Assembly: GCA_018674305.1 (NCBI GenBank)
Contig: JABHAL010000015.1
Coordinates: 128,532 to 192,531, forward strand
Reading direction: 5' to 3'
Source: Candidatus Falkowbacteria bacterium
GTDB taxonomy: Bacteria; Patescibacteriota; Patescibacteriia; UBA11705; JABHMO01
DNA: 64,000 bases
Below the pieces are notes generated by a model. It had not been told where the DNA came from and ran no database searches. It worked only from the letters and a program-made list of their open reading frames with translations. This document shows, one piece after another, positions 15,863 through 62,540 of the stretch (position 1 is the stretch's first letter; every line of letters starts with the position of its first letter). A program made the translations under genes and the position numbers.

Positions 15863-16118
15863 AAATTCTTTGGCCGCGATGTAACCAGAAATAGTTTTTG
15901 GTTTTGTTGCAGCTTAATACTTAAATAAAAAATACTCTTTCATCACGAAAAAGTATAATAATTGAATAATTATTTATCTTTCCCGTGCTGGGCTAGAATT
16001 GACACCTTCTTGAATTACCTTCAAGGGTTGTCGACAGGTCATCGGGCTATATCCCTCACTGTACTCTTGATAAATGGTTAAATTGTATATATATAATATT
16101 ACACTAAAATTAATTTTA

Positions 16119-18872: not shown

Positions 18873-18877
18873 ATATT

Positions 18878-19804
18878 TTATTTTTTAACAACAATAACAT
18901 TTCCCTTAATTGTATCAGGAACCTTACGCAATTCCGCTTTGAATCCCTTGTCCTGCAAATATTTTATCCTGGCTGAATCCAGCTTTTCCATTGCCTCTTG
19001 TCCTTTTTTTCGTTTTTCCAAGTCATTACTATTAGTTAAATCTGACTGACGACAAAGTTGTTTCCACTCTTCTTTGTCAATACCATATGGATTGGCATGA
19101 TTCTTGGCCATTCCCTGACAACAGGTCATTAAATACAATTCCGGACTGCCTTCAGATTTCGACCAACTATCAATAATATGATCAGCTAAATCACCACAAG
19201 GATGTTTGGCTACCCAGGTGCCATCAGGAATTTTATCTTTTCTAATATCAAATTGAACAGGTTCAACACTTTGATCCAAAATTTTATTTAACTCTTCTAC
19301 ATAACGAAGCTGATGTGGATTAATGTCCAAAACCTTAGCTGGTTTACCGGTCTTTTCAGATAAAACACGAGCCATATCACCAGCGCCACCAGCAATGTCA
19401 ATAATCTCATCACCAGAAATAGTATCAATTATTTTCGAAAAACCAATCATTTCTCGTTTTTTTCTTTTATAAAATTCTTCTGTTTTTTGGGGGAGAGAAG
19501 TATCACTATACACCTCTTGCTTAAGTTCAGGTACCATAAAATCTAAAAGAATACAGTTTTCACTGGGTGTTACGTTGTGAACATTAAATTTCCCAGACTT
19601 AAGCATCTGCTGAATTTCTTGAGCTCTTTCTGGTGAAAAATCAACAAAAAGCTCCTTCTGCCGTTCCCTATTCAATTCCCCTAAACTTTCCCAAAGTTTA
19701 TTGAGATAAGTATTAAAAACTCTCGCCCTATTTTTCTGGGAATATAATTCGTCTGCAACATGTTCAGCTACGGAGACTGGTAAATTTTGGTTTTCGAATT
19801 TCAT
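18878..19804 (-). CDS. Class I SAM-dependent methyltransferase, substrate unknown
   Basis: IDIAGGAGDMARVL motif I; VLDINP motif II. Confidence 0.55.
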   Translation of the reverse strand: MKFENQNLPVSVAEHVADELYSQKNRARVFNTYLNKLWESLGELNRERQKELFVDFSPERAQEIQQMLKSGKFNVHNVTPSENCILLDFMVPELKQEVYSDTSLPQKTEEFYKRKKREMIGFSKIIDTISGDEIIDIAGGAGDMARVLSEKTGKPAKVLDINPHQLRYVEELNKILDQSVEPVQFDIRKDKIPDGTWVAKHPCGDLADHIIDSWSKSEGSPELYLMTCCQGMAKNHANPYGIDKEEWKQLCRQSDLTNSNDLEKRKKGQEAMEKLDSARIKYLQDKGFKAELRKVPDTIKGNVIVVKK

Positions 19805-20882: not shown

Positions 20883-20911
20883 TTGACAATATACAACCAA
20901 TAAGCTATACT
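20883..20911 (+). promoter_or_regulatory. Sigma70-like promoter TTGACA-N17-TATACT driving the ncRNA below
   Basis: Consensus -35, 17-nt spacer, near-consensus -10; predicted TSS ~20918. Confidence 0.55.
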
Positions 20912-20917
20912 TTAACC

Positions 20918-21304
20918 TAGGTTAAGAAGTGAAACCTCCGCCACGCGGAGGGGTAACCTAAATTGGTTCCCGACAAACCGATTTAGATTGCTGGTAATAC
21001 CGGAGTGGGTTAGCTCGCCCTCATCATGGCCCTTGACAGCGGTGTTGGTAAATGAATAGCAGTCAAGTCCATTCTACGACTAGCCCTGCTACCAACCGCG
21101 ACCGTCTACAGACTAGGAAATACCTCCGCCAAATTGAATGCGCACAATTTGGTTCCGAATGGATATTGGACAAATATGAAACTGGCGAGAAAATTCATAT
21201 TTGAGAAATATCCAGGTCTAGTCCCTTATTCCGGGGGGTGCGTCAAGCATTTCTTAACCTAAAAGCGCGCCTTGTGCATCATTACGGGGCGCGCTATTTT
21301 TTTT
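20918..21304 (+). ncRNA. Unclassified structured ncRNA (~385 nt) bounded by promoter, closing helix and intrinsic terminator
   Basis: GC-rich island between two minus-strand genes. 5' GGTTAAGAAG (20920-20929) pairs with 3' TTTCTTAACC (21250-21259). Internal hairpins: CCTCCGC/GCGGAGG, CTAAATTGG/CCGATTTAG. Terminator GCGCGCC...GGCGCGC + T8 at 21265-21304. No convincing RNase P P4 or tmRNA UUCGAC/T-arm match. Confidence 0.5.
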
Positions 21305-36051: not shown

Positions 36052-36378
36052 TGGCTCTGCGAGTCGGACTCGAACCGACGACCTACTGGTTACACTTATC
36101 CAAGGATTTCTCCAGGGCGTGGACTATATCATCACCATAGCAAATGCTTTAGGCGCGAGGCGCTTCCACCTTGATGTAAAAATCAAAGTGTACTCCTAAA
36201 AAGGATAGTCTCTGAACCTTCCCCAACTAATGTTAGGGCTTGGCTGCGGATTAGCATATCACAATTGACTTAGCCTTCCCGACAATTCACCTCGTTATTC
36301 ACCCCAATGTTTCCAAAGGGGGCTGCGTTATATTTTTGTGTACACAGCCAGTTGCTCTACCAACTGAGCTATCGCAGA
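36052..36378 (-). tRNA. tRNA-Asn(GUU) (alternative reading Thr-UGU) interrupted in the anticodon loop by a 251-nt group I intron (36093..36343); exons 36344..36378 (nt 1-35) and 36052..36092 (nt 36-76 incl. CCA)
   Basis: Exons give a perfect cloverleaf: acceptor TCTGCGA/TCGCAGA, D-arm GCTC-AGTTGGTA-GAGC, anticodon stem ACTGG/CCAGT with loop CUGU|UAA, T-arm GTCGG-TTCGAGT-CCGAC, G73, CCA. Intron has Q AATCCGCAGC (exact), R GTTCAGAGACTA (exact), S ATGATATAGTCC, P AATTGTCGGGAA in canonical order. P1 pairs GGCUGU (exon) with GCAGCC (IGS) giving U.G at the splice site; omega-G precedes 3' exon. Confidence 0.8.
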
Positions 36379-47426: not shown

Positions 47427-47500
47427 AGAATTTTTGCTAAGTTTTCAGATAATCTCATTGTAACACTCCTGTCAAAAACAAAAAAATGTGCAAAGTGAAC

Positions 47501-47585
47501 ACATTTTTTATTCAAATTTCCTGATTCAGTTGTAATTTTGCGGAGACGTCAGTGGCTCTTTTTTAGGAGTGAGCTGGGGATAAGT
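47501..47585. repeat. Direct repeat copy A (85 bp; 84/85 identical to 48918..49002), flanking the toxin-antitoxin cassette
   Basis: ACATTTTTTATTCAAATTTCCTGATTCAGTTGTAATTTTGCGGAGACGTCAGTGGCTCTTTTTTAGGAGTGAGCTGGGGATAAGT occurs twice; similarity extends ~20 bp further upstream imperfectly. Confidence 0.8.
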
Positions 47586-47604: not shown

Positions 47605-47958
47605 TCAAATACCAAAATGTTTTTTTAAGTATAATCTTATTTCATGCATAATATTATTCCCGGCATGACCGATGACGCCGCAGAAACGACTATAATCACA
47701 GGAAGCAATGTTGTAAACCTTAATTAGAGAATTGCTTTTTAAATTATTTTCATTATCAGCATGAATAATTATATCATCATCAACTTTATTCGTTAAATTA
47801 CCTGTCAAAGGTATTACTGTTACTAAATTTGATCTGCTGATCTGCTTATTTGTTTGAATAACCACAGCCGGTCTTTTATCCTGGAATTCATGGCCGATAC
47901 TGGGATCAAACTGCGTCCAAACAATATCACCAAATTCTATTTGTCCTTTTTTGAGCAT
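47605..47958 (-). CDS. MazF/PemK-family type II toxin (endoribonuclease)
   Basis: GDIVWTQFDPSIGHEFQDKRPAVVIQ matches the PemK/MazF N-terminal signature; overlaps upstream antitoxin gene by 22 nt. Confidence 0.75.
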   Translation of the reverse strand: MLKKGQIEFGDIVWTQFDPSIGHEFQDKRPAVVIQTNKQISRSNLVTVIPLTGNLTNKVDDDIIIHADNENNLKSNSLIKVYNIASCDYSRFCGVIGHAGNNIMHEIRLYLKKHFGI

Positions 47959-48800
47959 AAATTTTCATAATAATTATATTCTTCTTTTGATATAGGGCCA
48001 AGATGCTTCAGGGAATCTACGCCAGAAGCATTTTGCCATGCTTGCCAATGATCAACCTGTGCGTATGGCGTTTCTCGGTCAACAGTTAATTCATAAGGAA
48101 TGACTTCATTTTTTCCCATAACCTTCCAGGGAATATCTTCATGAACATATTGCTCAATCTGGGCCGCTGACATATCTGACAATTTAGCAATAACATCATC
48201 AATTACATTTTTTTCTTTGATTGAAAAATTATCCAGATTAAAATCACCCAACGCGACATATCTTTTTTGCTTCATATCATGATATTCTTGAATGAAAATT
48301 TTAATCCGGTTTTCAGTTTCCATTTTCTTAATCACGGTTCGGAATTGAATTGACTGAGGTACCGGACCAAACTGCAATTTAACATAACTCAGGCCAATAA
48401 TCGGTTTGCCCCATTTTTCATAACTATTAAAATCAATAAAGTACAACAATTTATACAAAACAGTTTCTCCGACATTTGGCTTACCGCCACATTTATTTAA
48501 AACATAAAGTAAAACCTGCTGTAATTTCTCAGGATTGAATTCTATATCTTTATTTACTTCTACATCAGAAGGACTAGTTTCATTCTTGTTTATTTCCGAA
48601 ACAAGTAGCTCGTCAATTTTCACGCCAAAAAAAGTGGCGATTTTAGATAATTCAAATACTTCTACTCCCCTGTTTCCGGTTTCAATTGCCGACATGGCTG
48701 GACGAGAGATTCCAACATATTTAGCCAGTTTTGCCTGACTAACCTGTCTTTCTTCGCGCAGACTTTTAATTGTTTGACCCAATTGTTGTTTATTTATCAT
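47937..48800 (-). CDS. Antitoxin-like protein: N-terminal XRE-family HTH + C-terminal DUF4065 (Panacea/SocA-like) domain
   Basis: QAKLAKYVGISRPAMSAIETG HTH; LYKLLYFIDFNSYEKWGKPIIGLSYVKLQFGPVP DUF4065-like; own promoter TTGACA-N17-TATAAT at ~48812-48840 (minus strand). Confidence 0.65.
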   Translation of the reverse strand: MINKQQLGQTIKSLREERQVSQAKLAKYVGISRPAMSAIETGNRGVEVFELSKIATFFGVKIDELLVSEINKNETSPSDVEVNKDIEFNPEKLQQVLLYVLNKCGGKPNVGETVLYKLLYFIDFNSYEKWGKPIIGLSYVKLQFGPVPQSIQFRTVIKKMETENRIKIFIQEYHDMKQKRYVALGDFNLDNFSIKEKNVIDDVIAKLSDMSAAQIEQYVHEDIPWKVMGKNEVIPYELTVDRETPYAQVDHWQAWQNASGVDSLKHLGPISKEEYNYYENLCSKKDK

Positions 48801-48917
48801 ATATCTGAATTATAACACTGCTCAATATACTGTCAAGTGTATATCTTCAATGACAAGATACCTGACAACGGTTAGATGTTTATATTAATTTAAAAACAAA
48901 AAATGCGTCAAAATGGC

Positions 48918-49002
48918 ACATTTTTTATTCAAATTTCCTGATTCAGTTGTAATTTTGCGGAGACGTCAGTGGCCCTTTTTTAGGAGTGAGCTGGGGATAA
49001 GT
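48918..49002. repeat. Direct repeat copy B (85 bp), upstream flank of the TA cassette
   Basis: See copy A. Confidence 0.8.
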
Positions 49003-49353: not shown

Positions 49354-50838
49354 TTACAATTTCTTCAAAAATCTATAAATTTCCACCATTGCGAATGTAT
49401 CCAACTTACAATATTTGAGCAAGTCACTGGCGATCTGTTTTTTTTCTTCAGGTGAGCTATCGCCAAACACCATTCTTTCCCAGCGTTCGACTGCTTGGTC
49501 TCCTTTTTGGATTCCTAAGGTCCTGTAGGTAAGTTCAGGGACAATAACTGGAAGAACGTTTTTTATACTCGAACTTCCTTTGAACCGAGCATCAACATAA
49601 TAATTATTAGAAAAGATTGTCATGAGGTCAAACATTCGGTCGTTCAGGCCAACAAGAAATTCAGCATAGTCAGGATGGATTTCTGCAAGTTTATCGTTTC
49701 GTTGTGATTCATATGATTTGTACCAAGCGATGACACTACCCGTATCATCAAAATCTTCTCTCATTCTTTTGATAAGTGGCAAAGTAAGATCACTTTCTGG
49801 GTCGGTGATAAGATATTCCTTGTGGTCCAGTGTTCCATCTTCATGCAATATATGTAGTGAGTATTGAAATGGTACTTGTTCATATGCGCCAAAATCATTA
49901 AACCTTGGGATTGCGCTTGAGTAGCCTTCATAATCGAAGAAATGGATTGGGAAGGTCAAACTAGCAAGCTCATTTCTTACGGCAGTGGTGTCAACAATTG
50001 GATTTCCAAGCATATACGCGTCGTATTGGAACTTTTTCGTACCTTTAAGTTTTTCTGGGTTATCTATTTCTTCCAGCTTATATATTCCTCGATCTATCCA
50101 GTCATAAAACAGTTTTTTACTACCACCGATTCTATTGATATCATGGACAGAATATTCTGGGACTTTTGGGTTGGAATAAGCAAATGTAGTACATTGTGAA
50201 TTTCTGCCACGGTACAAACATTCACAGCCTTTTTCTTCTTTCATATTCAAATAGATCTTGATATCGTTCATTTGTTCCTGAACACCCGCCTCGGCCTCTA
50301 GAACCTCGTCTGTTAGCTCGGCAATGATAAACAGCTCGTCATAGTCAACTTTTCCCTGTTTCCGGTATTCACCGTTCAGATGAATTACGCCTGCTTTCAC
50401 AATATTCAGACCGTCATTCTCAATAACAATTTTCTGGAATGCGAGGTCGTTGATATGATGGTGCGGAATCTCCCTTTTCACGTCGTTGGTTGCTTTTACT
50501 TCATAGAGCTCCCAGCCTTTCAAAACATTATTATAACGAAGGATATCTGCCTGGACGAAAAAGTCATTATACTGGAATGCACCCTGGAACAGGACTGGTG
50601 GGTTTTTCTCGAGTATTTTTTTTGTAACTGGTACGGCATTGACACCAATAATATCAATCAGTTCTCCACCAGGAAAAAGATTTCTGGCTGCTTCGTCTGC
50701 TATATTCCCCTCTTCGATAATTTTCTTTTCAAATTCTGATAATTCGACATCGTCAAAAAGCTCTGGCTTGTGTTTGTTTAGCCAGAGATTCTTTTTGCAG
50801 TATGTGTATTCGAGGTAGTCGGTTTTTGTGATGTGCAT
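49354..50838 (-). CDS. DUF2779-like protein (predicted RecB/Cas4-like PD-(D/E)XK nuclease family)
   Basis: N-terminal MHITKTDYLEYTYCKKNLWL resembles the conserved SKS...qCpkrLWL start of DUF2779 proteins; family assignment from memory, moderate. Confidence 0.45.
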   Translation of the reverse strand: MHITKTDYLEYTYCKKNLWLNKHKPELFDDVELSEFEKKIIEEGNIADEAARNLFPGGELIDIIGVNAVPVTKKILEKNPPVLFQGAFQYNDFFVQADILRYNNVLKGWELYEVKATNDVKREIPHHHINDLAFQKIVIENDGLNIVKAGVIHLNGEYRKQGKVDYDELFIIAELTDEVLEAEAGVQEQMNDIKIYLNMKEEKGCECLYRGRNSQCTTFAYSNPKVPEYSVHDINRIGGSKKLFYDWIDRGIYKLEEIDNPEKLKGTKKFQYDAYMLGNPIVDTTAVRNELASLTFPIHFFDYEGYSSAIPRFNDFGAYEQVPFQYSLHILHEDGTLDHKEYLITDPESDLTLPLIKRMREDFDDTGSVIAWYKSYESQRNDKLAEIHPDYAEFLVGLNDRMFDLMTIFSNNYYVDARFKGSSSIKNVLPVIVPELTYRTLGIQKGDQAVERWERMVFGDSSPEEKKQIASDLLKYCKLDTFAMVEIYRFLKKL

Positions 50839-50934
50839 TTTTTTGTGCTTGAGTTTTTAGATATCGATAATAGTGCAAATATTTTTTGGGAGTGGTAAAG
50901 AGACTTGTCTTCCGAGGTTAGATGAATGTCCAAC

Positions 50935-52251
50935 TTATTTTTCTAAATTTTTTAAACCAATTTTTGGATTCTGATAATCTAGCCCATCTGGCGTCAATTT
51001 AATTGATTCCATAAAATATTTTTTTGAATTTTCTTTGTCGTTAAGTTCAGCAAAAATAACGCCCATATTGTTTAATATCGTACATACAGTTTTGTCTCGT
51101 TTTAAATATTTTTCTCCAGCTGAAAAATATTCTGGATTTATTGTTCTAGTAGTTTCCGTATCTTGAACAGTATTTTCAAGTTTTCTTGCGACTTTACAAG
51201 CTTCTTTAATAAAATGATCATAAACTTGATTATATATTCCCATAGCCTCAACTAATTTACCCTCTTTTTTGTATTTTTGTGCTTGATTAACTTTGTTTTG
51301 TAAATCATCATCAGAATTAACAAGAACACCCTCCTCAATAACAAAACCGACAGGAGCCTTTCTTGATAATCTTTTATTGTAAGGTGAAATATATAATTTT
51401 CCAAGATCTTTATTATGTTCAGTAAAAATATTATAAATGTCTATTAACCCATCCATTTTCATTACACTTGATTCAATCGATCCAGCTCTTTTAAATTTAA
51501 TTTTACTTCCATCAACGGTTTTTAGACTTTCTAAATACACGTCGCTTGCCAAAATTCCGTTCACAGGGATTGGATTGGTTTCACAGCGACCAAATTCGCC
51601 ATATGCGACAGGAATTTCATCTTCGTCATAGCCTAACCCTGTTAAGCCAAAACCAGTCTCTATAAATTTAATAGCTTTTTCATCTGTTGATCCAAGCATT
51701 AGAAAAGCAGTTACAAGCTTCAATTCATTATCGTCTAAAATATCACCAAAATTCAATTTCATTGACTCATACAATCGATTTTTGTTTATTGAAAGCATAC
51801 CCTTCCCCTTCAAGAGCATCTTTTGTGCTGTTTCAAAGTTTATTTTACCATTTAAAAGTTCAATAATTTCATTTGTTTGATCTTGAATTTGTTTTTTACC
51901 ACCAGGAAAGTGGGTCTTGGACATCTTTTCAAAAACTTCTGTGATCTCTGATTTATTTGTTTTCTTCTTTATGATGTCCTGTTTCCGAATAATTCTTCTC
52001 GCAGATACATATATTCTAAGAGGCCAAATAAAAAAAATTCTGATAATCCCATTGAGTCGGGCTGCGCCACGTTCATTCACGTAAAGTGGAGATTCTATAT
52101 TTGCCTTAAGGTCAAATTCTCGAGAATTAAAAAGCAAAGATAATATGCGATAGCGCATATCCCAGAACACAAGCAACAACCCTCCGGCTAAATAGGTTAG
52201 GATTATAATTATAATTTTAATCATATTTTCATTTTTTATTCCTACCTTCAA
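50935..52251 (-). CDS. Membrane-anchored hypothetical protein (438 aa) with C-terminal TPR-like helical repeats
   Basis: N-terminal TM; C-terminal AMGIYNQVYDHF...ILNNMGVIFAELNDKENSKKYFMESIKL. Confidence 0.4.
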   Translation of the reverse strand: MKVGIKNENMIKIIIIILTYLAGGLLLVFWDMRYRILSLLFNSREFDLKANIESPLYVNERGAARLNGIIRIFFIWPLRIYVSARRIIRKQDIIKKKTNKSEITEVFEKMSKTHFPGGKKQIQDQTNEIIELLNGKINFETAQKMLLKGKGMLSINKNRLYESMKLNFGDILDDNELKLVTAFLMLGSTDEKAIKFIETGFGLTGLGYDEDEIPVAYGEFGRCETNPIPVNGILASDVYLESLKTVDGSKIKFKRAGSIESSVMKMDGLIDIYNIFTEHNKDLGKLYISPYNKRLSRKAPVGFVIEEGVLVNSDDDLQNKVNQAQKYKKEGKLVEAMGIYNQVYDHFIKEACKVARKLENTVQDTETTRTINPEYFSAGEKYLKRDKTVCTILNNMGVIFAELNDKENSKKYFMESIKLTPDGLDYQNPKIGLKNLEK

Positions 52252-52341
52252 TCTACCACATTTAAGCTAAAATTACTATGACAATATCAAAAAAACAGGC
52301 TCATTTGAGCATAGGTCTGCCTTAATATATCCATTACAACA

Positions 52342-52854
52342 TTATAACTCAAAAATAATCTTTGCCTCAGCCATAAGTTTTTTGGTTAATGAAAGATTCC
52401 ATGCTCTCATTGTTTTGTGCCATTTCCGAAATTCCAAAAACTTCTCCCATGTTAATTCAATGATTAAAACAGGCTCAAGCGCTTTACTTATTGAAACAAT
52501 AATAACATATTCAAACTTTTTGTCTGGCAAAATAGTATCTTCTACATTTCCCACATTATAAAAAACACCTGTTAGTCGGCCTGGTTGGGTGATTGTTTTA
52601 ATACTATATCTTTCTCCCTTTCGACTTAACGCATCAACGTTTTGTGTTCCCTCGGGGGCAGCTTGTAAATTTGAATAACCTGGAATATTATTATATGCCT
52701 CGATAGCTAAAAATTCACCCCTTTCTCCAGTAATATTTTCTGTTCTTACTAGTCCTCTCTCTTTTAATTGAACCTTCGCAAACGCAAACAGCTCCCAGAC
52801 ATTATGATTATCGAGGGTTTCTAGTTTTTTTATTAAATTTTTGGATAATGGCAT
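52342..52854 (-). CDS. Hypothetical protein (170 aa)
   Basis: ORF only. Confidence 0.4.
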   Translation of the reverse strand: MPLSKNLIKKLETLDNHNVWELFAFAKVQLKERGLVRTENITGERGEFLAIEAYNNIPGYSNLQAAPEGTQNVDALSRKGERYSIKTITQPGRLTGVFYNVGNVEDTILPDKKFEYVIIVSISKALEPVLIIELTWEKFLEFRKWHKTMRAWNLSLTKKLMAEAKIIFEL

Positions 52855-52861
52855 ATTTTAT

Positions 52862-53158
52862 TTTTTCACAAATGCTTTACTACCTCTACGGCAATTGCCC
52901 GTATCAAATTAACTGGAACGCTGTTCCCAAATTGCTTATACGCTTGTGTGTCAGAAACAGGTATAACAAATGTTTCCGGATAACCTTGTAGCCTTGCAGC
53001 TTCTCTTGGTGTTAACTTTCTAGGATTTTTTCCTATTTGCGCAACCAGAATCTACCGGTCTTTTTTTTAATAAAACTTTTTGCTATGTGCGATACGGCTT
53101 CATTAGTATGGGACCAATCTGGTTCTTGAATTTTGTTTTTACTTTTTTGATTAAACAT
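52862..53158 (-). pseudogene. Remnant of a DNA (cytosine-5)-methyltransferase (C-terminal motifs IX/X only, frameshifted)
   Basis: Minus-strand translation gives ...[49 protein letters not shown] (classic C5-MTase C-terminus), preceded by out-of-frame MFNQKSKNK... segment; no motifs I-VIII present. Confidence 0.6.
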
Positions 53159-53238
53159 ACTTAATATTACTATAATAACTTCCAACATCCTTCATCAAAA
53201 CCATTTTTATGAAACATTTTTTTAATATAGCTTCTGTC

Positions 53239-54009
53239 CTAACTTTCTTTTATCCTATATTTACCTGAGTTTACTAACTTCACACTATTATAATCATCCT
53301 CATTTTCGAATTTAAATTGCCAAATAGAATAACTATTTTCTTTAATATCTCGCTCAAAAAACAAAATAATAACTTTCTTTTCTGTACAAACTTGCCATTG
53401 CCTAAATGGATAATAAAGTTGTCTTATGATCGTATTGCTAACGCCAGGCCTTTTTGCCTCAACCAAAACAATTTGGTTTTCTCCCTCATAACCAGCATCT
53501 ACTTCTGTCTGGACACTCGCTGTTTTAATCTCTTGACTCCCAACTTTAAAATGAAATTCCGGCGTGTATTTTCGACCACGAATTGTCAGAACAAGTGTCG
53601 GATCGTCCATAAAAGTTCTGATTAAACTTGAGGCATAGGCAAAATCTAGATGTTGCATCTCAGAGTCTCCTACATCTGAGGAATCCAAGTGAAATTGTAA
53701 TTTAGACGAGTATATTTCAATTTCTTTATTTATTTCTGGCATATCCAGATAACCCTCCCCTTTTATAATATTATATATTCCATTTTTAACGGGAAGAAGA
53801 AATAGATTGTTTTTTTGAAAAATTTTCGGACGGGACTCTCTTGTGTCCTGCTTACAAAGGATTCGAACCTCCTTTTCTGCAGTTTTTTTAAATCTTTGAC
53901 ATGAAACTTTAATTTGCGGTGCGGTTAATACAAATGGTTCTTTATCAAAGTCGTGCTCATTAATGTTATAATCACGAAATATTTTTGCCCATGATTTGCT
54001 GTTTGCCAT
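53239..54009 (-). CDS. Putative type II restriction endonuclease (PD-(D/E)XK)
   Basis: EVDAGYEGENQIVLVEAKR (D...E.K) motif; starts 2 nt after the MTase stop. Confidence 0.5.
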   Translation of the reverse strand: MANSKSWAKIFRDYNINEHDFDKEPFVLTAPQIKVSCQRFKKTAEKEVRILCKQDTRESRPKIFQKNNLFLLPVKNGIYNIIKGEGYLDMPEINKEIEIYSSKLQFHLDSSDVGDSEMQHLDFAYASSLIRTFMDDPTLVLTIRGRKYTPEFHFKVGSQEIKTASVQTEVDAGYEGENQIVLVEAKRPGVSNTIIRQLYYPFRQWQVCTEKKVIILFFERDIKENSYSIWQFKFENEDDYNSVKLVNSGKYRIKES

Positions 54010-54011
54010 AA

Positions 54012-54818
54012 TTATAATAGTTTACGATTTTTAGATTTCAATATTTCATTGAATCTTTGCTTTGACAAATCCAAATATTCTTTTTCCATATCAAGCCCAA
54101 CAAAGTGACGTCCATGCTCATACGCGGCAATCCCAGTTGTTGAACTGCCCGTAAAAGGGTCAAGAATTAAATCTCCTTTATTTGTACTTGCAATAACAAT
54201 TCTTTTTAGCAAATCCAAAGATTTTTGTGTAGGATGTTTGCCAAAGTTTTTCTCTGATTTTTTTGGAGTATTAATTGACCAAACAGATCTCATTTGCAGA
54301 CCAGGCTTCTTCATCTGATCTTCCGGCCAATCACCATTTTTCATTTCCTGATAATTAAAGGTGTGCTTCGCCTTTTTCTCTTTTCTCGCCCAAACCAATG
54401 TTTCGTGACTAGCAGTGAAAAATCTACAACTTAAATTTGGTGATGCGTTTGGCTTAAACCATGAAATATCATTTAAAACATGATAGCCGGCCAACTGCAA
54501 TGCAAAGCCACACTGATAGACAGAATGATAGGTTCCGCTAACCCAAATAGTACCATTTGGTTTCAATACCCTTCGACATGCGTTTATCCAATCTAAATGA
54601 AAATTAAAGTTTTCTTGGTGTCCTTTACTTAAATCCCAGTCCCCCTTTTTCACACTCACCATTTTACCATTCTGACAGGTAAAACTACCGCTGGAAAGAA
54701 AATATGGCGGATCGGCAAAAATCATATCAAAAATATCTGGTGGGAACTCCTTCAGAATTTCCATTGAGTTTCCATGATATAACTTGAATTTAGGTTTTTG
54801 AAAGTATGGTTTTTTCAT
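54012..54818 (-). CDS. DNA methyltransferase, beta-class N6-adenine/N4-cytosine (DPPY)
   Basis: Motif IV FADPPY precedes motif I ILDPFTGSSTTG (beta-class order). Confidence 0.8.
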   Translation of the reverse strand: MKKPYFQKPKFKLYHGNSMEILKEFPPDIFDMIFADPPYFLSSGSFTCQNGKMVSVKKGDWDLSKGHQENFNFHLDWINACRRVLKPNGTIWVSGTYHSVYQCGFALQLAGYHVLNDISWFKPNASPNLSCRFFTASHETLVWARKEKKAKHTFNYQEMKNGDWPEDQMKKPGLQMRSVWSINTPKKSEKNFGKHPTQKSLDLLKRIVIASTNKGDLILDPFTGSSTTGIAAYEHGRHFVGLDMEKEYLDLSKQRFNEILKSKNRKLL

Positions 54819-55013
54819 ATATATGACACTATTTTAACATGTCTGCTAAAATTTTTCAACAAAATCTCAACCGCACTCCCCTAATTTTACACAAAAGGAT
54901 AATCAATAAAAAAACGCCCTCTCAGGCAGTTGGGAAAAATAATTACATAAAGTGGAACCGATAGCATCTGAATGGAGCCGCCCGTCTCTCAGTAATGTCA
55001 AAATATTAATAGG

Positions 55014-55622
55014 TCAGACAATATATCCATCTTTTTTTAGCTTTTGTTGCATTAACTTTTTTTCTTCTACTGTAGGATGCAAAAAAGTCCCTCCTCCAAT
55101 AAATTTATACCAAAACCATTCATTATTAAACTTGTTTTTAATTTCTAAATAATCTTTGTATTGAATTTTTATAGCTATTAATACTGGGGCTTCCTTACTT
55201 AATTTATGAGACGAAAAAATATTGCCTGATGATGTGCTTTTTTTATCTTGATATAATTTATTTGGCGATTCAAACCTATTTAATTCTACTTTGTCATTAG
55301 GATACATATAAAGGGTTGTGATACTTACATCACTAGCAGGGTGTTTTCCTTGATTATGAAAAACAATATTATATGGGTATTTAAATTTTAGTCCATCCTC
55401 AAATCCCCCTTCTTCAATTCTTACTTCTGTCTTGTCAATACTAATAAGTGGCCTTTCAAAATGTCGTGTGAATCGAGTTGTTTTAAAATGGATGAAAACT
55501 GCTAAAACAAGACTTAAAAAACCAATAATCGAAGGTGCCAAATCTTTTATTATCTCAATATAAGTACTCTCGGTTAGAGTACAAAAAACCGACGGAGCCG
55601 ATTGTATAAAAGTTTCTGTCAT
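55014..55622 (-). CDS. Membrane-anchored hypothetical protein (202 aa)
   Basis: N-terminal TM. Confidence 0.4.
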   Translation of the reverse strand: MTETFIQSAPSVFCTLTESTYIEIIKDLAPSIIGFLSLVLAVFIHFKTTRFTRHFERPLISIDKTEVRIEEGGFEDGLKFKYPYNIVFHNQGKHPASDVSITTLYMYPNDKVELNRFESPNKLYQDKKSTSSGNIFSSHKLSKEAPVLIAIKIQYKDYLEIKNKFNNEWFWYKFIGGGTFLHPTVEEKKLMQQKLKKDGYIV

Positions 55623-55710
55623 AAATAAATATTATACTTTTATTCTAGCAAGCTCACCATCTAAAGTCAATCAAAAAAACGCCCAAGTTTGGACGTTTTG
55701 TGTTTGTGTG

Positions 55711-57636
55711 TTAGTTACATGCAGTCATGTCAAAACCAAATATCTGTGTGTTTTTCAATTTAATCAGCACACTACAAGTTCCAACATCTACAAACAATTG
55801 ATTATTTGCCAAATAAAGATATGTCAACCAAAGCAAACCAGCTATAGGAGTAACATCACTTACTTGATTATTCTCAATACTAAGCGTTTTTAAAGTTGTT
55901 AAACTTTCTAACCCCACTAGACTTGAAACTTGGTTGTTGTTAAGCCAAAGTTGAAGTAAAGAAGTTAATCCCGCCAAAGGAGTAAGATCAGTGACTTGAT
56001 TATTACTAAAACGTAAATATTTCAGAGTAACTAATCCAGCTAAAGGTGTAAGGTCAGAAACCTGGTTATTGTTAATGTTTATGCCTTCCAGTGAGGGTAA
56101 CCCTGACAATGGAGTTAAATCAGAAACTTGGTTATTCATAAGAGTTAGGCCCCTCAACAAAATTAATTCAGCCAAAGGAGTAAGGTCCGAGACGAGATTG
56201 TCTTCTAACCAAAGATTATCTAATGAAATTAACCCTACTAAAGGAGTTAAATCAGAAATTTGATTCTCATAAAGAATGAGTTGCCATAGAGAAGTTAGCC
56301 CTTCCAAACCATTAAGATTGGATATCTGGTTTTCCTGAAGTTGAAGAGAGGTTAACAATGAAAGCTCTGCTAAAGGAGTTAAATCAAATATTTGATTCTC
56401 CTGGAGTTGCAAAAGTTCCAATGACGTTAACTCCATTAAAGGAGCAATATCAGAGATAAAATTATCCTTGGCCCTAAGCCAGTTTAACGAAGTCAATCCG
56501 GATAAGGGAGTAAGGTCCGAGATAAAATTTTCCTGAATATCTAGATGCGTCAAAGTAACCAAGCTACTTAAAGGACCAATATCAACAATCCCAATTTCAT
56601 CCATTTCCAATTCTTTTAGGGATAAAAAGTGTTCAATTCCTCCCAAATCAGTAATGGGATTGTGCGACAACTTCAGCACTTCAATATTTTTCACATCATT
56701 TTGAGTTAAATACGGAAACTGATTTTCATCAAGCTTATTGATTTTTTTCCGCACAACATATTCGAAGTCTGGATCTGCAAATTCGATAATACTACTTATG
56801 CAATTACCTTCTTCCTCCATATACCAATCATCACAGATCACGTTACAACCTGGATATGGCCCAATGATTCCATTTTCAATTTCCTGCACTTCGCAAACTG
56901 GAAGTTCCACCACCTCAAATCCCACCTCAAAACTATCCACATCATCCCCATCACTCACCAAGAAAGTAACTTCATACTCTCCCGCCTGATCAAATCCAGG
57001 CGTCCATGAAAAAGTTGCACATGGCGCAGGTGGAAAAACAAGACAAGGTTCATCAGGATTTGGATCAAAGATAAATCCTTCCGGCGCATTTTCAACTGAG
57101 AACACTAAATCATCATCGTCATCATCATACGCCCAAAGATGACCCTCAATCAATTCACCTTCATTGACGATTTCCTCATTAAACGCAATCCACAACTCCG
57201 GCGGATTATTCACATACTCGCATACACCTTCAAGGCAGTAATGCTTCGCGCTGTATTCACTACAATTCTTGTACCACCGCTTGTAAGTCTGATTCGCCGA
57301 GCAACCGCCCTCGATAACATACGTTGTTCCAAACCAGTCAAGACACCAGTCAGCTTTACCAACTGGACTTGTATCAGTCGTGACAATGCCGAACTCTTTG
57401 AACGACATACCACCATCAGAATCCTCACACCAGCCCTGGACTGCATTTTGTGCCTGAGCACTGCAATCCCACGAGCAATTCATGTAGTTTGCCCAATCAG
57501 CGTCAAGCAAGAGCTGATAGCAACTGTCTTTCCAACATTTGTAAAAGAATTTTTGTTGGTAATAGTTTAGAGCCATTGCATTTGTTGCAAAAGATACGAC
57601 AACGAGGCCTAAAATTACTGTGATTACCTTTTTCAT
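55711..57636 (-). CDS. Secreted leucine-rich repeat protein (internalin-like 22-residue LRRs, ~14 repeats) with Cys-rich N-terminal domain
   Basis: Signal peptide; repeats L..L..L..L.L..NQ(V/I)SDLTPL. Confidence 0.75.
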   Translation of the reverse strand: MKKVITVILGLVVVSFATNAMALNYYQQKFFYKCWKDSCYQLLLDADWANYMNCSWDCSAQAQNAVQGWCEDSDGGMSFKEFGIVTTDTSPVGKADWCLDWFGTTYVIEGGCSANQTYKRWYKNCSEYSAKHYCLEGVCEYVNNPPELWIAFNEEIVNEGELIEGHLWAYDDDDDDLVFSVENAPEGFIFDPNPDEPCLVFPPAPCATFSWTPGFDQAGEYEVTFLVSDGDDVDSFEVGFEVVELPVCEVQEIENGIIGPYPGCNVICDDWYMEEEGNCISSIIEFADPDFEYVVRKKINKLDENQFPYLTQNDVKNIEVLKLSHNPITDLGGIEHFLSLKELEMDEIGIVDIGPLSSLVTLTHLDIQENFISDLTPLSGLTSLNWLRAKDNFISDIAPLMELTSLELLQLQENQIFDLTPLAELSLLTSLQLQENQISNLNGLEGLTSLWQLILYENQISDLTPLVGLISLDNLWLEDNLVSDLTPLAELILLRGLTLMNNQVSDLTPLSGLPSLEGININNNQVSDLTPLAGLVTLKYLRFSNNQVTDLTPLAGLTSLLQLWLNNNQVSSLVGLESLTTLKTLSIENNQVSDVTPIAGLLWLTYLYLANNQLFVDVGTCSVLIKLKNTQIFGFDMTACN

Positions 57637-57916
57637 GACATTCCTCCAGTCAAATTGTCAACGTTCATTTCTAACTCAATCGTAACTTAAATTAACTGGT
57701 TAGTCTAGCATTAATTGTCAATTTTGTCAATTGTGAAATATGAATTATGCGATATGTATTATGGAAATTAATTGTGGAAATAAAAAAACGTCCCAATCGA
57801 GACGCCAACATACCTACGATAAGTGAACCTGCCGAAGGCAGGTTTTGTGTTTATTTAGTTTAGCCTATAAAAATCTGCACCTTCCTTATATAATTTTACA
57901 CAAACGTAGCCAGCAC

Positions 57917-57945
57917 TTGACAACAATACAATTATGTTCTATAAT
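57917..57945 (+). promoter_or_regulatory. Consensus sigma70 promoter TTGACA-N17-TATAAT
   Basis: Perfect -35 and -10 hexamers with 17-nt spacer. Confidence 0.6.
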
Positions 57946-57951
57946 AAAGGC

Positions 57952-58250
57952 ACAGTAGCCCCCTATACCTTGTATAGGAACGTAGGGACAGTGATACAAA
58001 TACTGATTTCAGGACTGGTATTGTTTAGTAGAATGGTACAAACCTCGCCATCTATTGCGTCAATGTTAAAACTGAGAAGTAAAAACATGATGAGAATGGA
58101 GTTTAGGTCCACTTTGCAGGTTATTGCAACGTGCAAGTGACCAACAAGGATAGTATAAAACTCTTTTCTCATTAGTACGCTACTGTCTCTTGGGTTCAAA
58201 CCCGACACTTTATATATTCTTAGGAAATATATCGCGGTCGGGTTTTTTTT
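57952..58250 (+). ncRNA. Unclassified ncRNA candidate (~300 nt) between a consensus promoter and a strong intrinsic terminator
   Basis: Terminator AACCCGAC...GTCGGGTT + T8 (58199-58250); 5' hairpin CCTATAC-cttg-GTATAGG; only weak ORFs inside (68-aa ORF starts within the promoter spacer). Confidence 0.45.
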
Positions 58251-58361
58251 ATTTTTTCCAATAAATTCGGAGAAAAAATCAACAAAAAAACCCAGCACCG
58301 TTTGGTACTGGGTAAGCGCCTCTCACGCGAGGCGGTTTGTGTTTGTTTGTTAATGAAAACT

Positions 58362-59297
58362 TCACTCCAGGGACACTACTTGCACATCAATACCCCACTG
58401 TTTGCAAAGTACTGTCAATGATGTTTCGTGAGCTTGACCAACAACAAATAACGCTTCTGTATAGCCATGCTTTCGCATCTGCTGTACAATGTGAGCCAAC
58501 ATTATTTGATCTCGCCAAACGAAATTCAAGTTCATAACTCCTGCAAGATAAACATTTCTGTTCAGACTCTCTTCTACGAACATGAACAAAGTTGGTATCA
58601 AAGTTCCCAAATAGTAATCTTCTACTCCGAAAATCTTTTGATCACTTTGTCCAATGTAGTCAAAATGCCAGGAGTGCAAACCGTTGGCCTTGTAATTTCC
58701 AAAAAATTCTTCTGGTCCAATCTTAGTTGCATTGGCCAATGCTTCCGGCTCCCACTTTGCTAGCTCTTGCAAAAAACTGGCCCAAGTCATTTCATCTACA
58801 GGGTCATTTTCCTTAAAAACAACCTCGGGTGAGCTTGTCCGAACATACTCAGAAATTAGAGCTTGTCGACGAAGAGACTCTTCTGTCTGCTTATGCTGTA
58901 ACACGGGGTGACTATCTAAAAGGATCGTGATCTTCAAAGTTGGACCTTTTTCCAACTCGGCAATTCCTTTTTTAATAATTTTCAGCTGTCGCTTGACATC
59001 CACTCGCCAAAAATACTCCAGAGCCTCTCTAATAGAGTTTTTCTCAGTATACATTCGCACTATGGGATACTGTCGTGCCAAGACCTCCGCAGGTAAAAGG
59101 CTCGCCAGTTCTTTTGCTTTTTGTTTAGCAAAAGTTGCTGACATATCAGGATCCGAAAAAAGTTCTTCCAATGTGTAATTCTTTTGTTCTTTTGACTCCG
59201 GTTTCTTTTTTGTAGAAGTCTCCTTTTCCCCACAAGAACATACTATTAACATCAAAGAACACACAATGACATTTCGGCAATTCAACATCTTTCTCAT
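58362..59297 (-). CDS. Lipoprotein, TraB/GumN/PrgY-like
   Basis: Signal + IVCSCG lipobox-like; RDQIMLAHIVQQM and FVVGQAHE resemble TraB/GumN motifs; promoter TTGACA-N17-TAGAAT (minus strand) within duplicated block 59355-59420. Confidence 0.45.
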   Translation of the reverse strand: MRKMLNCRNVIVCSLMLIVCSCGEKETSTKKKPESKEQKNYTLEELFSDPDMSATFAKQKAKELASLLPAEVLARQYPIVRMYTEKNSIREALEYFWRVDVKRQLKIIKKGIAELEKGPTLKITILLDSHPVLQHKQTEESLRRQALISEYVRTSSPEVVFKENDPVDEMTWASFLQELAKWEPEALANATKIGPEEFFGNYKANGLHSWHFDYIGQSDQKIFGVEDYYLGTLIPTLFMFVEESLNRNVYLAGVMNLNFVWRDQIMLAHIVQQMRKHGYTEALFVVGQAHETSLTVLCKQWGIDVQVVSLE

Positions 59298-59470
59298 ATC
59301 AGTCTCCTCTATTGCAAATTATCAATTTGATCGTATCTAAATCGAACTCTTTATTCTAGCATTTATTGTAAATTTTGTCAATTGTGAAATGTCGAGTAAG
59401 TATAATGTATTATGGAGAAACAAAAAATGCCCGTCCAACAGGCATTCACATTTGAACATACTTTTTAATT

Positions 59471-60007
59471 TTAATTTGATATCGCTGTATTCAGTTTATC
59501 CAAAATTTCTAGGGCAATTAATTCTGGCTCTTTGCACGAATAAATTTTAATATCACCAAATTGTTGGTATTCTCGAAATCGTTTTCGAAATTTTTCGCGC
59601 TCTCTATCCTCTTTCAATCCGAAACCGCGCTTGAGCTGTCTTTTGATTACTATCTCCGTACTCTCCTCCAAGGACTCTGACGGTAATAGAAGCACTGTAA
59701 TTCCTGCTTTTTCTAAAGTCTGCTGATTTTTTAAGGTTAGTTGGTCAAAACTATCGTGAACTAGGAATCCCGAGGAAAGAGCGAAAACAAAATTATCTTT
59801 CTTTTGATTAAGAATATTAAGAAAAAGGTCTGAGTTTCTTTGACAATATTCCTCATATCCCCTTGTATTAATGAACACACCAACATTTTCAATCTTTTCA
59901 CAAAACTCTCCATCTAAATCAATAAAATCATATCCAAGCTTTTGTGCAAGTATTTTGCCAACCGTTGATTTCCCAACTCCACCTGGACCAATAATGAATA
60001 TTTTCAT
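59471..60007 (-). CDS. P-loop NTPase, shikimate/adenylate-kinase-like small kinase
   Basis: Walker A IIGPGGVGKSTVGKILAQKLGYDFIDLD. Confidence 0.55.
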   Translation of the reverse strand: MKIFIIGPGGVGKSTVGKILAQKLGYDFIDLDGEFCEKIENVGVFINTRGYEEYCQRNSDLFLNILNQKKDNFVFALSSGFLVHDSFDQLTLKNQQTLEKAGITVLLLPSESLEESTEIVIKRQLKRGFGLKEDREREKFRKRFREYQQFGDIKIYSCKEPELIALEILDKLNTAISN

Positions 60008-60070
60008 ATTAAAATATTGTATTATCCCTATAACTAGTGCTTCCGATATATTACAATTTAAAACTTTAAT

Positions 60071-61399
60071 CTAGAGTCGATTATCCTCATGAAACGCTCG
60101 AATCTGTTCATCCATAATAATAGTTCTGCGAGTCATGGGTCGCTTGAGAACCATCCCCTCAAGTGTTGTACAACGACTAAGCGCCACATAACTCTGCCCA
60201 TGCGCAAAAGTACCACGCCCAAAATCGATTATAACTTTTTCAAATGTCTTGCCCTGACTCTTGTGAACGGTAATCGCCCAAGCTAAACGGAGTGGAACCT
60301 GAATGTATTTACCAATCTGTTCACGCTCAAACTTCCCGCCATGAAAGACGTACTTGGAAATTTCCCATTCATGTCGCTTTACTTCTACAATTTTTTTATC
60401 TTCTTTCTCTACTCTAATAACAATCTCTTCTGCATCTTTCTCTGAATTATATTCCATTCTAATCTCTTTAATTTTACCAATCGTACCATTTACCCAGCGC
60501 CTTTCCTTGTCATTGCAAATAAACATCACCTGCGCGCCCTCACACAGAGTGATCGTAGTATCATTAGGGTATAAACTTTTAGGAACCTTGCCTGATTTCT
60601 CTGCAACAAAATCTAATTCTGACTGTCCTAGTTTTTTCATTTCTAATTCATTGATTGTTCTGGCTTCAGCATTCGTTGTAACTAAATAAATATACTTATC
60701 GCTTTTCGATGGACTAAAATCTCTTGAATAACGAGAATTTAATACTTGCAAATGATTATCTTCAACTCTGTTTTCCCGAACGGCATTTAATACTTCAATA
60801 AATTTCCGATCCTTTTGTCGATAAATTGTCTCCAGTTCAATGATTGGTAATTCAAAGTCGGCATCAAAAATATTTTTTTGACCACTGAATACATCGGACG
60901 CAAAAAAGTATGGTGAATCATATTCAGAAAAAAACTGTTCCCTGTCTGCCGTGGTTACCACTGGCGGTAATTGATAAAGATCTCCGAATAGGACCATCTG
61001 CACACCACCAAACGGATGCTCACTTCCTCTTGCCCGTCGAAGAACTATATCCATAGCATCAAATACATCAGCTCTGACCATTGAAACTTCATCCACGAAC
61101 ATTGTCTTTAGTCTGGCAAACTTTTTCCTTTTCCTGTCATCAATTTTCATTTTCCGCGCTTCATCCTTTTCATAACCAGGCTTGATACCGAAAAATGAAT
61201 GAATAGTCTCTCCGTTAACATTAATTGCGGAAATCCCAGTCGGTGCTAAAACTACGGACTTTTTCTTGTTATATAGCCGGATATGCTCAAGAAGTGTGGA
61301 TTTACCAGTTCCCGCCTTGCCTGTAACAAAAAAACTACGGTCAGAATTCTCCACCAAATCAATAACTTGTTTTGCTTTTGCACAAAATTTAATAGACAT
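60071..61399 (-). CDS. Pif1/RecD-family ATP-dependent DNA helicase
   Basis: Walker A GKAGTGKST, motif II MFVDEVSMV, LFGDLYQLPPV, C-terminal HKSQGKTFEKVII...YVALSRC. Confidence 0.8.
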   Translation of the reverse strand: MSIKFCAKAKQVIDLVENSDRSFFVTGKAGTGKSTLLEHIRLYNKKKSVVLAPTGISAINVNGETIHSFFGIKPGYEKDEARKMKIDDRKRKKFARLKTMFVDEVSMVRADVFDAMDIVLRRARGSEHPFGGVQMVLFGDLYQLPPVVTTADREQFFSEYDSPYFFASDVFSGQKNIFDADFELPIIELETIYRQKDRKFIEVLNAVRENRVEDNHLQVLNSRYSRDFSPSKSDKYIYLVTTNAEARTINELEMKKLGQSELDFVAEKSGKVPKSLYPNDTTITLCEGAQVMFICNDKERRWVNGTIGKIKEIRMEYNSEKDAEEIVIRVEKEDKKIVEVKRHEWEISKYVFHGGKFEREQIGKYIQVPLRLAWAITVHKSQGKTFEKVIIDFGRGTFAHGQSYVALSRCTTLEGMVLKRPMTRRTIIMDEQIRAFHEDNRL

Positions 61400-61625
61400 G
61401 CCTACATTTTAGCAGAAAAAAGATAAAAGGTAAAAGTGGTAAGGTAAATTTTTCAATAAAATCATCCAGCCGCCTAGGGGTAAAAAACCCCGTGAACGGG
61501 GCTAGAATCTTTAGGCGTCCGCAGGCCCCTTTAGGGGCCTTTGTTGTAGATAGCCTGGCCGTTGCACGGCCAGGCAGCAAAGTGAATTTTTCAACAAAAA
61601 ACCCGATGCTGTAATAAACACCGGG

Positions 61626-62540
61626 TTACTTTTTCTGCTTGATAATAAATTGCCAAGCTAGACGGAGCGGGACACGCCAACCAGTCTTGCGTAACTGATA
61701 AGCTGACACCCATCTTTTGTTAACTATTTTGTAGCCAATTGAATTCAAAACTGCATTCATGTCAGAATAACGATCCACGCCCCAAAGCATGAAAATGTTA
61801 CCTGATTGAACACGATTCAGTCCGATATGTCCAATTTCATTGCGACTATTGATCACAATTTGCCAAAGCTTGCTACGTTTTTTGGAAAATCGAACATATA
61901 ACTCAAAGGCCATGGCCACCAGCACCAATTTGTTAAACAACTTGGTCAAAACCCATTTTGTTAAGTCCGACACCTGTTCTGGTTTTTTGAAATCAGGTAT
62001 CTGCTTGAAAAAATAGGATTTGGTAGCTGACACACGAGCTAAAAACTCAACTTCTGACATATCAACATTTTGCCATTCTTGACGATTTTTTCTGTACGGT
62101 AAACTGCGTGGCTGAGAAGCTAAGCCTATGACTTGCTTGATCCAACGTAGCCCAGCATAAACAGCTTGGAGCTGCCTTTTAGCTTCCCACTCAGCTGGCT
62201 GCAACTTCAACCGTTGCTCTTTGGTTAATGGCCTAATCTTGTCATGCAGGATTGAATAGCCACAGGTTTGATGAATCCTGACGAGCTTGTTTAGCTCGGC
62301 ATAATATTCTGGGTCTGCTAACGGAATCGTTGGCGCAAACATCAAAGTACGACCGTTTTTTTTGGCATGATAGGTTACGATCGGCAACTGGATATTTCCA
62401 TTACGACAACGTATATATTCTGTACCAAATCGATTAACCAACTTCATCGCCAACCAATAAAACGGGTACGTAACCAACATTAGCAACACCAGCAGGAACA
62501 GCAGTACAGACCGCCAGATTCTGCGTAGTATTTTTCTCAT
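61626..62540 (-). CDS. Membrane hypothetical protein (304 aa)
   Basis: N-terminal TM helices. Confidence 0.4.
   Translation of the reverse strand: MRKILRRIWRSVLLFLLVLLMLVTYPFYWLAMKLVNRFGTEYIRCRNGNIQLPIVTYHAKKNGRTLMFAPTIPLADPEYYAELNKLVRIHQTCGYSILHDKIRPLTKEQRLKLQPAEWEAKRQLQAVYAGLRWIKQVIGLASQPRSLPYRKNRQEWQNVDMSEVEFLARVSATKSYFFKQIPDFKKPEQVSDLTKWVLTKLFNKLVLVAMAFELYVRFSKKRSKLWQIVINSRNEIGHIGLNRVQSGNIFMLWGVDRYSDMNAVLNSIGYKIVNKRWVSAYQLRKTGWRVPLRLAWQFIIKQKK

Follow-up and report, generated by a model that had tools for sequence, protein, structure and literature searches.

The stable structural and protein-binding RNAs of bacteria, such as 6S RNA, RNase P RNA, and raiA-type RNAs, share a layout in which the ends of the molecule are locked in a helix beside the terminator; short antisense regulators are laid out differently. 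In type I toxin mRNAs, of which hok is an example, the 5' and 3' ends typically fold back on each other, and Listeria and Clostridium possess antisense RNAs under riboswitch control. Bacteria of the candidate phyla radiation (CPR), which have tiny genomes and depend on hosts, have few catalogued RNAs. TIGR arrays and box C/D-like guide RNAs occur in CPR bacteria and phages; TIGR-Tas systems consist of tandem repeat/stem-loop units with box C/D-flanked spacers and a Nop-domain Tas protein (PMC12045711).

Here, we analyze a candidate RNA unit on the plus strand of a 64-kb stretch of DNA, referred to below in its entirety as the window; NCBI assigns the protein adjoining the candidate to Candidatus Falkowbacteria bacterium, a member of the CPR. 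Like 6S RNA, raiA-motif RNA, Ms1, and RNase P RNA, the candidate is bounded by a strong promoter and an intrinsic terminator of its own and holds no ORF with the codon usage of the window, and its predicted fold has paired ends and several long hairpins over ~300 nt, but it matches none of the Rfam models of these RNAs. Furthermore, the predicted fold is a multi-hairpin junction, unlike the rod with a central bubble characteristic of 6S RNA. A cmscan search against the 4227 families of Rfam 15 returned no match for the 311 nt of the locus alone, even at E <= 10, and nothing for the unit at the gathering threshold when the whole window was scanned; the matches obtained for 2.5 kb at E <= 10 were terminator-driven or miRNA noise. 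That Rfam can detect RNAs in this sequence is shown by the same run, which recovered a group I intron and a SAM riboswitch in other parts of the window. ARAGORN detected neither tRNA nor tmRNA (0 genes). The absence of a tmRNA, RNase P, or SRP signature, initially noted by eye, is upheld by these searches.

Several known types of RNA were considered individually. Like tmRNA and tRNA, the candidate contains a T-arm-like hairpin near the 3' end (GGGUUCAAACCC), and its size is of the same order; the hairpin differs in having a loop of 6 rather than 7 nt and in lying 3' of the closing helix, with no acceptor strand or CCA, and the candidate lacks a tag-like reading frame, so that, with ARAGORN and Rfam both empty, tmRNA was rejected. 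RNase P, 6S, and SRP RNAs were discarded as well, there being no covariance-model match at E <= 10 and, for RNase P, no P4 motifs seen by eye in the candidate sequence. A riboswitch, T-box, or attenuator was dismissed given that there is no Rfam aptamer match and no plus-strand gene downstream; the next plus-strand ORFs are of 39 and 66 aa and overlap the minus-strand gene for a 311-aa protein. As in retron msr-msd RNAs, terminal inverted repeats (compare a1/a2) enclose hairpins, with UAGC at the 5' repeat, but Pfam and PADLOC searches of the neighbor proteins revealed no reverse transcriptase within ~8 kb upstream or ~4 kb downstream, and a retron was rejected on these grounds. A TIGR array was considered because this system occurs in CPR bacteria and the RNA holds UGAUGA and CUGA strings, along with tandem stem-loops ending in a terminator; however, there are no tandem repeat units (TRF and repeat scans were negative), the order and spacing of the boxes do not fit, and no Nop domain is present in the neighbor proteins. 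A tRNA remnant (att site) and a defense RNA were also rejected, with neither repeats nor partner proteins found. Target prediction (RNAduplex against all translation-start regions) was uninformative.

Transcription signals and genomic setting

The window is AT-rich (37% G+C), with a uniformly negative GC skew and nearly all genes on the minus strand. The contigs that bear the locus come from marine metagenomes, for example, Saanich Inlet, 200 m. The candidate unit runs counter to nearly every gene of the region and sits within a 725-nt gap without genes, between a gene for a secreted leucine-rich-repeat (LRR) protein and a gene for a lipoprotein-like ORFan, which is convergent to the unit (Table 1). 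Back-to-back terminators upstream insulate the unit from the promoter region of the LRR gene, and the convergent ORFan has its own terminator, so that the two convergent transcripts are predicted not to overlap.

The sigma-70-type promoter, which is preceded by an A/T-rich stretch, matches the consensus at all 12 positions, as the original prediction held, and is the sole perfect match with a 17-nt spacer on either strand of the window. Dinucleotide shuffling yields an expectation of 0.04 perfect matches, with any match found in 4 of the 100 shuffles. Hairpin plus T-run terminators and consensus promoters flank real genes of this genome, and three minus-strand genes possess comparable promoters (Table 1); judging by sequence, the promoter of the candidate is of the type used for real genes in this genome.

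Table 1. Positions of the candidate RNA unit, its predicted structural elements, and neighboring features in the window
Feature	Position	Strand	Details
Sigma-70-type promoter	57917-57945	+	TTGACA (57917-57922), 17 nt, TATAAT (57940-57945); 12/12
Predicted transcription start	57952	+	A, 7 nt past the -10 box; from promoter geometry
Closing helix P1, 5' strand (predicted)	57952-57959	+	ACAGUAGC; begins exactly at predicted +1
5' hairpin (predicted)	57962-57978	+	CCUAUAC-CUU-GUAUAGG; mean pair probability 0.89
Alternative partner of the 3' segment (predicted)	57984-57997	+	AGGGACAGUG.UAC; second fold
Long imperfect hairpin A (predicted)	58001-58081	+	~80 nt; apical loop ACAAACCUC; helix probabilities 0.76-0.92
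Long imperfect hairpin B (predicted)	58088-58174	+	~87 nt; two basal helices, 0.98 and 0.92
Closing helix P1, 3' strand (predicted)	58179-58186	+	GCUACUGU; 11 nt before the terminator
Small T-arm-like hairpin (predicted)	58190-58205	+	UUGGG-UUCAAA-CCCGA; 6-nt loop; -6.3 kcal/mol
Intrinsic terminator	58198-58250	+	9-bp basal stem and inner hairpin, then T8 (58243-58250)
Second terminator-like site	58317-58334	+	Beyond the terminator of the candidate
Antisense ORF	57963-58298	-	111 codons, GTG start; 69 aa in one assembly
Upstream back-to-back terminators	57806-57787; 57825-57845	-; +
Terminator of the convergent 311-aa ORFan	58290-58313	-
Secreted LRR protein gene	55711-57636	-	One border of the gap
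Lipoprotein-like ORFan gene	58362-59297	-	311 aa; other border of the gap; convergent to the unit
Comparable promoter of a minus-strand gene	48836-48809	-	12/12, spacer 16
Comparable promoter of a minus-strand gene	40793-40766	-	12/12, spacer 16
Comparable promoter of a minus-strand gene	59381-59353	-	11/12, spacer 17
DUF2779/Cas4-like nuclease	49354-50838		Defense-type island
Methyl-directed restriction enzyme	52342-52854		Defense-type island
Restriction enzyme	53239-54009		Defense-type island
Type II methyltransferase	54012-54818		Defense-type island
Shikimate-kinase-like P-loop protein	59471-60007		Defense-type island
PIF1/RecD-like helicase	60071-61399		Defense-type island

Pfam and PADLOC scans of the neighbor proteins showed that the neighborhood of the candidate (49354-62540) is a defense-type island encoding restriction, methyltransferase, nuclease, and helicase proteins (Table 1), and it looks like a variable defense island.

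Two repeated elements were observed close to the unit. An 87-nt promoter module is present at 57679-57765 and 59330-59416 (78% identical), the first copy preceding the LRR gene and the second the 311-aa ORFan, and each carries TTGACA-17-TAGACT or TAGAAT on the minus strand. The exact 14-mer TTTGTGTAAAATTA is found twice in the window, at 57891-57904 (-) and 54882-54895 (-), and a near-identical copy lies upstream of a NUDIX gene in L011, the contig of the 84% PIF1 relative described below (~19345-19360, +). This 14-mer may be a promoter or an operator; at 57891-57904, it might drive a minus-strand transcript of ~90 nt, divergent from the candidate, that would end at the minus-strand member of the back-to-back terminators.

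Predicted fold of the transcript

The MFE fold of the unit, which is ~299 nt long, has a predicted energy of -90.9 kcal/mol (z = -4.99). For the 235-nt core without the terminator, the z-score of the fold was -4.8 on the plus strand vs -2.5 on the minus strand, and among 152 background windows of 235 nt tiled across the same sequence (mean z of -0.68, SD of 1.4), the plus-strand core was the most extreme. By these folding models, the structure is exceptional and the plus strand is favored.

The two strands of the closing helix P1 are perfectly complementary over 8 bp, and a match of this quality has a chance of 0.7-1.0%, as estimated from shuffled or natural control windows; the start of P1 coincides with the +1 position that was predicted independently from the promoter. 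In the second fold, AGCCC (57957-57961) pairs with GGGUU (58192-58196), and the 3' segment pairs with the alternative partner at 57984-57997, as in the MFE fold, rather than with the 5' strand of P1. The P1-constrained fold, at -90.1 kcal/mol, is nearly isoenergetic with the MFE fold, the two being 0.8 kcal/mol apart. The repeated ACAGU behind this predicted bistability is only 5 nt long. We treat both as candidate global folds, neither backed by covariation. The long hairpins A and B occur in both folds and are robust across the ensemble.

The terminator and its T8 tract were confirmed, but the stem is of 9 bp, not 8 as in the original prediction: AAACCCGAC (58198-58206) pairs with GUCGGGUUU (58237-58245), enclosing a 29-nt interior that itself forms a small hairpin. 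The terminator hairpin has a predicted energy of -16.2 kcal/mol and a pair probability of 0.96; a simple terminator scan overlooks it because the loop exceeds 8 nt. The alternative GGGTT/AACCC pairing that had been noticed across the 5' arm of the terminator is real, corresponding to the small T-arm-like hairpin, which overlaps and competes with this arm; the regulatory role at which it hinted is weak, with no plus-strand gene downstream to regulate.

Near-identical 10-mers, GGUACAAACC and GGUUCAAACC, are located at two hairpin tips of the RNA (58035-58044 and 58193-58202), and the convergent 311-aa gene likewise carries ACAAAC repeats in its 3' UTR (~58334-58350, minus strand).

Homolog searches and population copies

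No homolog of the unit was detected in phage, plasmid, viral, metagenome, or GTDB-representative scans, nor in the contigs of relatives. Specifically, blastn against phages and plasmids produced no match, and eight scans of IMG/VR (five with DNA patterns and three protein-seeded) yielded no real match; the sole IMG/VR match (L018) is GC-rich coding DNA and was discarded, ~3 chance matches being expected for a 35-bit pattern. The overlapping ORFs were additionally used as translated probes, in the form of 12 degenerate 24-nt seeds, against a set of 5.8 billion proteins, 1.84 billion representatives, JGI metagenome contigs, and IMG/VR, and only identical copies were returned from these four sets. 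There were no transcript-length contigs among the protein-indexed assemblies. Both scans of JGI metagenome contigs missed the source itself, though JGI contigs bearing the locus exist, so the source samples may lie outside that collection; and, given that the searches relied on exact words or patterns, distant (structural) homologs could have been missed. Close relatives appear to be absent from the collections searched.

Eight further contigs from different samples (L001 and L003-L009) cover all or part of the RNA with 100% identity, and across their full lengths, no more than one base differs. Accordingly, the locus is not an assembly artifact, but these contigs offer no variation to exploit. 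The covariation with homologous regions on which the original prediction had counted as a check was therefore not obtained, the copies being all identical and no homolog having emerged from any collection searched. By sequence, the copies seem confined, for now, to one marine CPR population.

Some variation was observed around the unit. One contig (L002) represents a 99.3% strain variant that ends at 58256, 6 nt past the terminator of the RNA, and carries an extra collagen-repeat gene between a 304-aa ORF and the PIF1 helicase gene. In four independent cases, the assembly is interrupted at or within the RNA locus (L002 at 58256, L005 at 57911, L008 at 58077, and L009 at 58148), which may reflect strain-level variation at this spot.

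For the adjacent 311-aa gene, no relatives were found; the nearby PIF1 helicase has many homologs across CPR bacteria. The contigs of the nearest relatives recognized by way of PIF1 (84%, 76%, and 72% identity) and of a 42% match from Desulfobulbaceae share no gene order with the locus and contain no homolog of the RNA. In the contig of the 84% relative (L011), an 830-nt stretch without a called gene includes a small ORF at 18860-19135 (-), which is accompanied by an 11/12 promoter and a terminator and has a strong Shine-Dalgarno sequence (GGAAGGAG); this opposite-strand promoter/terminator unit was not accepted as an analog, considering that it holds an ORF with a good Shine-Dalgarno sequence.

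Readings of the unit

A unique promoter, a strong terminator, the best and strand-biased fold, a helix anchored at +1, and the lack of a coding signature (see below) make a non-coding RNA the most economical reading. We assign a probability of about one half to the unit being an independently transcribed, lineage-specific, structured non-coding RNA of ~299 nt. Under this reading, the housekeeping RNA polymerase would start at ~57952 from the perfect consensus promoter and stop at the hairpin and U8 at ~58245-58250, and the ~299-nt product would not be translated. The RNA would fold compactly, with P1 pairing its first 8 nt with an equally long segment 11 nt ahead of the terminator and enclosing the short 5' hairpin and the two imperfect hairpins of ~80 nt each. 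The paired-ends layout favors, by analogy, a trans-acting structural or protein-binding role, and the product might be a stable trans-acting RNA specific to this lineage and residing in a variable island rich in defense genes. The start site, end, fold, and function of the RNA are all inferred rather than demonstrated. The original prediction of a stand-alone RNA gene therefore holds as far as the anatomy is concerned, whereas conservation beyond identical copies was not found. A bacterial small RNA gene delimited by a promoter and a terminator is of a familiar kind, and its sequence belongs to no described family; a specialist would class the unit as a good candidate rather than a discovery. 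Being an orphan of a single population, the candidate is of value as a well-defined target, its first (57952) and last (58250) positions being specified along with its helices. If strongly transcribed, structured, and family-less, such an RNA would lengthen the short catalog of CPR RNAs and could mark a lineage-specific RNA-protein machine.

A bolder version of this reading, which we consider unlikely, is that a class of CPR structured RNAs not described before (~300 nt, strongly transcribed, with paired ends) has come into view with the candidate as its first member, and that the bistable 3' pairing of the candidate (with nt 1-8 or 33-46) would serve as a functional switch. Another unit built in this way was observed at 20883-21304 (+), with TTGACA-17-TATACT (11/12), a predicted transcript of ~385 nt, and a 5' end pairing with the stretch immediately ahead of a 13-bp terminator stem and T8 (fold z of -6.8). 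Its sequence is unrelated to that of the candidate, and it had no Rfam match at E <= 10; if it is indeed such a unit, it would hint that RNAs of this kind recur in these reduced genomes.

Among the other explanations, it is possible, if somewhat doubtful, that the unit is a functionless remnant, its promoter and terminator having arisen by chance or being relics within a horizontally acquired island with fast turnover, in which case any transcript would have no selected role. This possibility is compatible with the lack of homologs in any collection searched, with the adjoining 311-aa gene being an ORFan as well, and with the variable neighborhood, which is non-syntenic in relatives. However, the perfect unique promoter, the strong terminator, the strand-biased fold, and the +1-anchored helix are each improbable, and their joint presence is hard to account for without selection.

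The coding potential of the plus strand bears on another alternative, namely, an mRNA for a small hydrophobic, possibly type I toxin-like peptide of 49-56 aa, starting at UUG 57970 or GUG 57991, whose translation would be prevented by the start region pairing over a long range with the 3' end. As in hok-type mRNAs, the candidate is predicted to be highly structured over ~300 nt with a 5'-3' fold-back; it includes a short ORF with an in-frame hydrophobic stretch (VGTVIQILISGLVLFSRMV, Kyte-Doolittle mean of 1.86) followed by a basic tail; and GUG 57991, within AGGGACAGUG, is paired to the 3' end in the MFE fold, placing a possible start codon in a helix. However, these two codons are the only starts in the transcript, with no AUG and no convincing ribosome-binding site, and the longer plus-strand ORF of 68 aa begins inside the promoter, its ATG preceding the predicted transcription start. 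Many genes here have no Shine-Dalgarno sequence, and some look leaderless, so the missing ribosome-binding site alone is weak evidence against translation. When codon usage was modeled from 32 of the genes in the window, the plus-strand ORF scored -0.07, below the first percentile of 68-codon chunks of real genes and in the manner of a shadow ORF, and its stop-free run is ordinary in length (P = 0.20). HMMER, run through the full set of 1.84 billion protein representatives, gave 0 matches for the 68-aa product, and tblastn-confirmed translated scans of metagenome and viral contigs revealed no homolog. In further contrast to type I toxin loci, no promoter for an antisense antitoxin RNA was found, and repeat scans detected no direct repeat linking the unit to a divergent antitoxin partner. 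We therefore regard a toxin mRNA as very unlikely.

Returning to the structured non-coding RNA, the competing pairings of its 3' segment could be viewed as a conformational switch that decides whether the terminator forms, read-through producing a transcript antisense to the 311-aa gene. The near-equal energies of the two folds and the ability of GGGUU to take either of two partners, the 5' AGCCC and the AACCC in the arm of the terminator, would allow for this, and the riboswitch-controlled antisense RNAs of Listeria and Clostridium provide a precedent. Yet, the anti-terminator hairpin is weak compared with the terminator (-6.3 vs -16.2 kcal/mol), the ACAGU repeat that creates the bistability is short, no aptamer was matched in Rfam, and a second terminator-like site follows on the plus strand. 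Such a switch is accordingly judged highly improbable.

The antisense ORF that overlaps the unit exists and looks non-genic, in agreement with the initial assessment. Its codon score of -0.008 is close to the first-percentile value for real genes cut into 111-codon chunks (-0.007) and falls within the range of shadow ORFs, 23% of which score at least as high; for both ORFs, the scores of -0.01 to -0.07 bits per codon are equaled or exceeded by 23-37% of shadow ORFs. The GC content at codon positions 1-3 is 0.39/0.29/0.41 vs 0.47/0.34/0.32 in real genes, the GTG start lies inside the terminator hairpin of the neighboring gene, and no minus-strand promoter of at least 9/12 is present between 58290 and 57960. 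Searches of 5.8 billion clustered proteins and translated scans of metagenome and viral contigs returned identical copies only, and the AlphaFold2 model of the 111-aa product has a pLDDT of 42. We judged this ORF to be spurious. The claim that the ~300-nt region harbors no credible ORF is thus supported in that no ORF has the local codon usage or homologs, with the qualification that the antisense stop-free run of 119 codons is unusually long (P = 0.008-0.013). The least probable alternative, in which the minus-strand ORF (111 or 69 aa) is a real ORFan controlled by a full-length antisense RNA from the plus-strand promoter, can draw on this run, on the shared orientation with the neighbors, on gene calls in three assemblies, and on the minus-strand terminator downstream (57806-57787), but has against it the codon usage, the lack of a promoter, the restriction to identical copies, and the asymmetry of fold stability in favor of the plus strand.

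Apart from the candidate, several other elements were observed in the window. A 111-nt direct repeat (47475-47585 and 48892-49002, 90% identical), each copy of which ends in a hairpin and a T-run on the minus strand, flanks a two-gene cassette that encodes a 287-aa protein (47937-48800) and a small downstream ORF. In the 12/12 promoter of the gene for the 287-aa protein, the -10 box stops just 8 nt short of the ATG, and a leaderless mRNA is therefore possible. The group I intron (36100-36353, -; 80.5 bits) is located in a 1.25-kb gap in which no tRNA was detected. The SAM riboswitch, of the SAM-I type (15971-16076, -; 68.3 bits), lies directly upstream of a metK-like gene (14906-15862).
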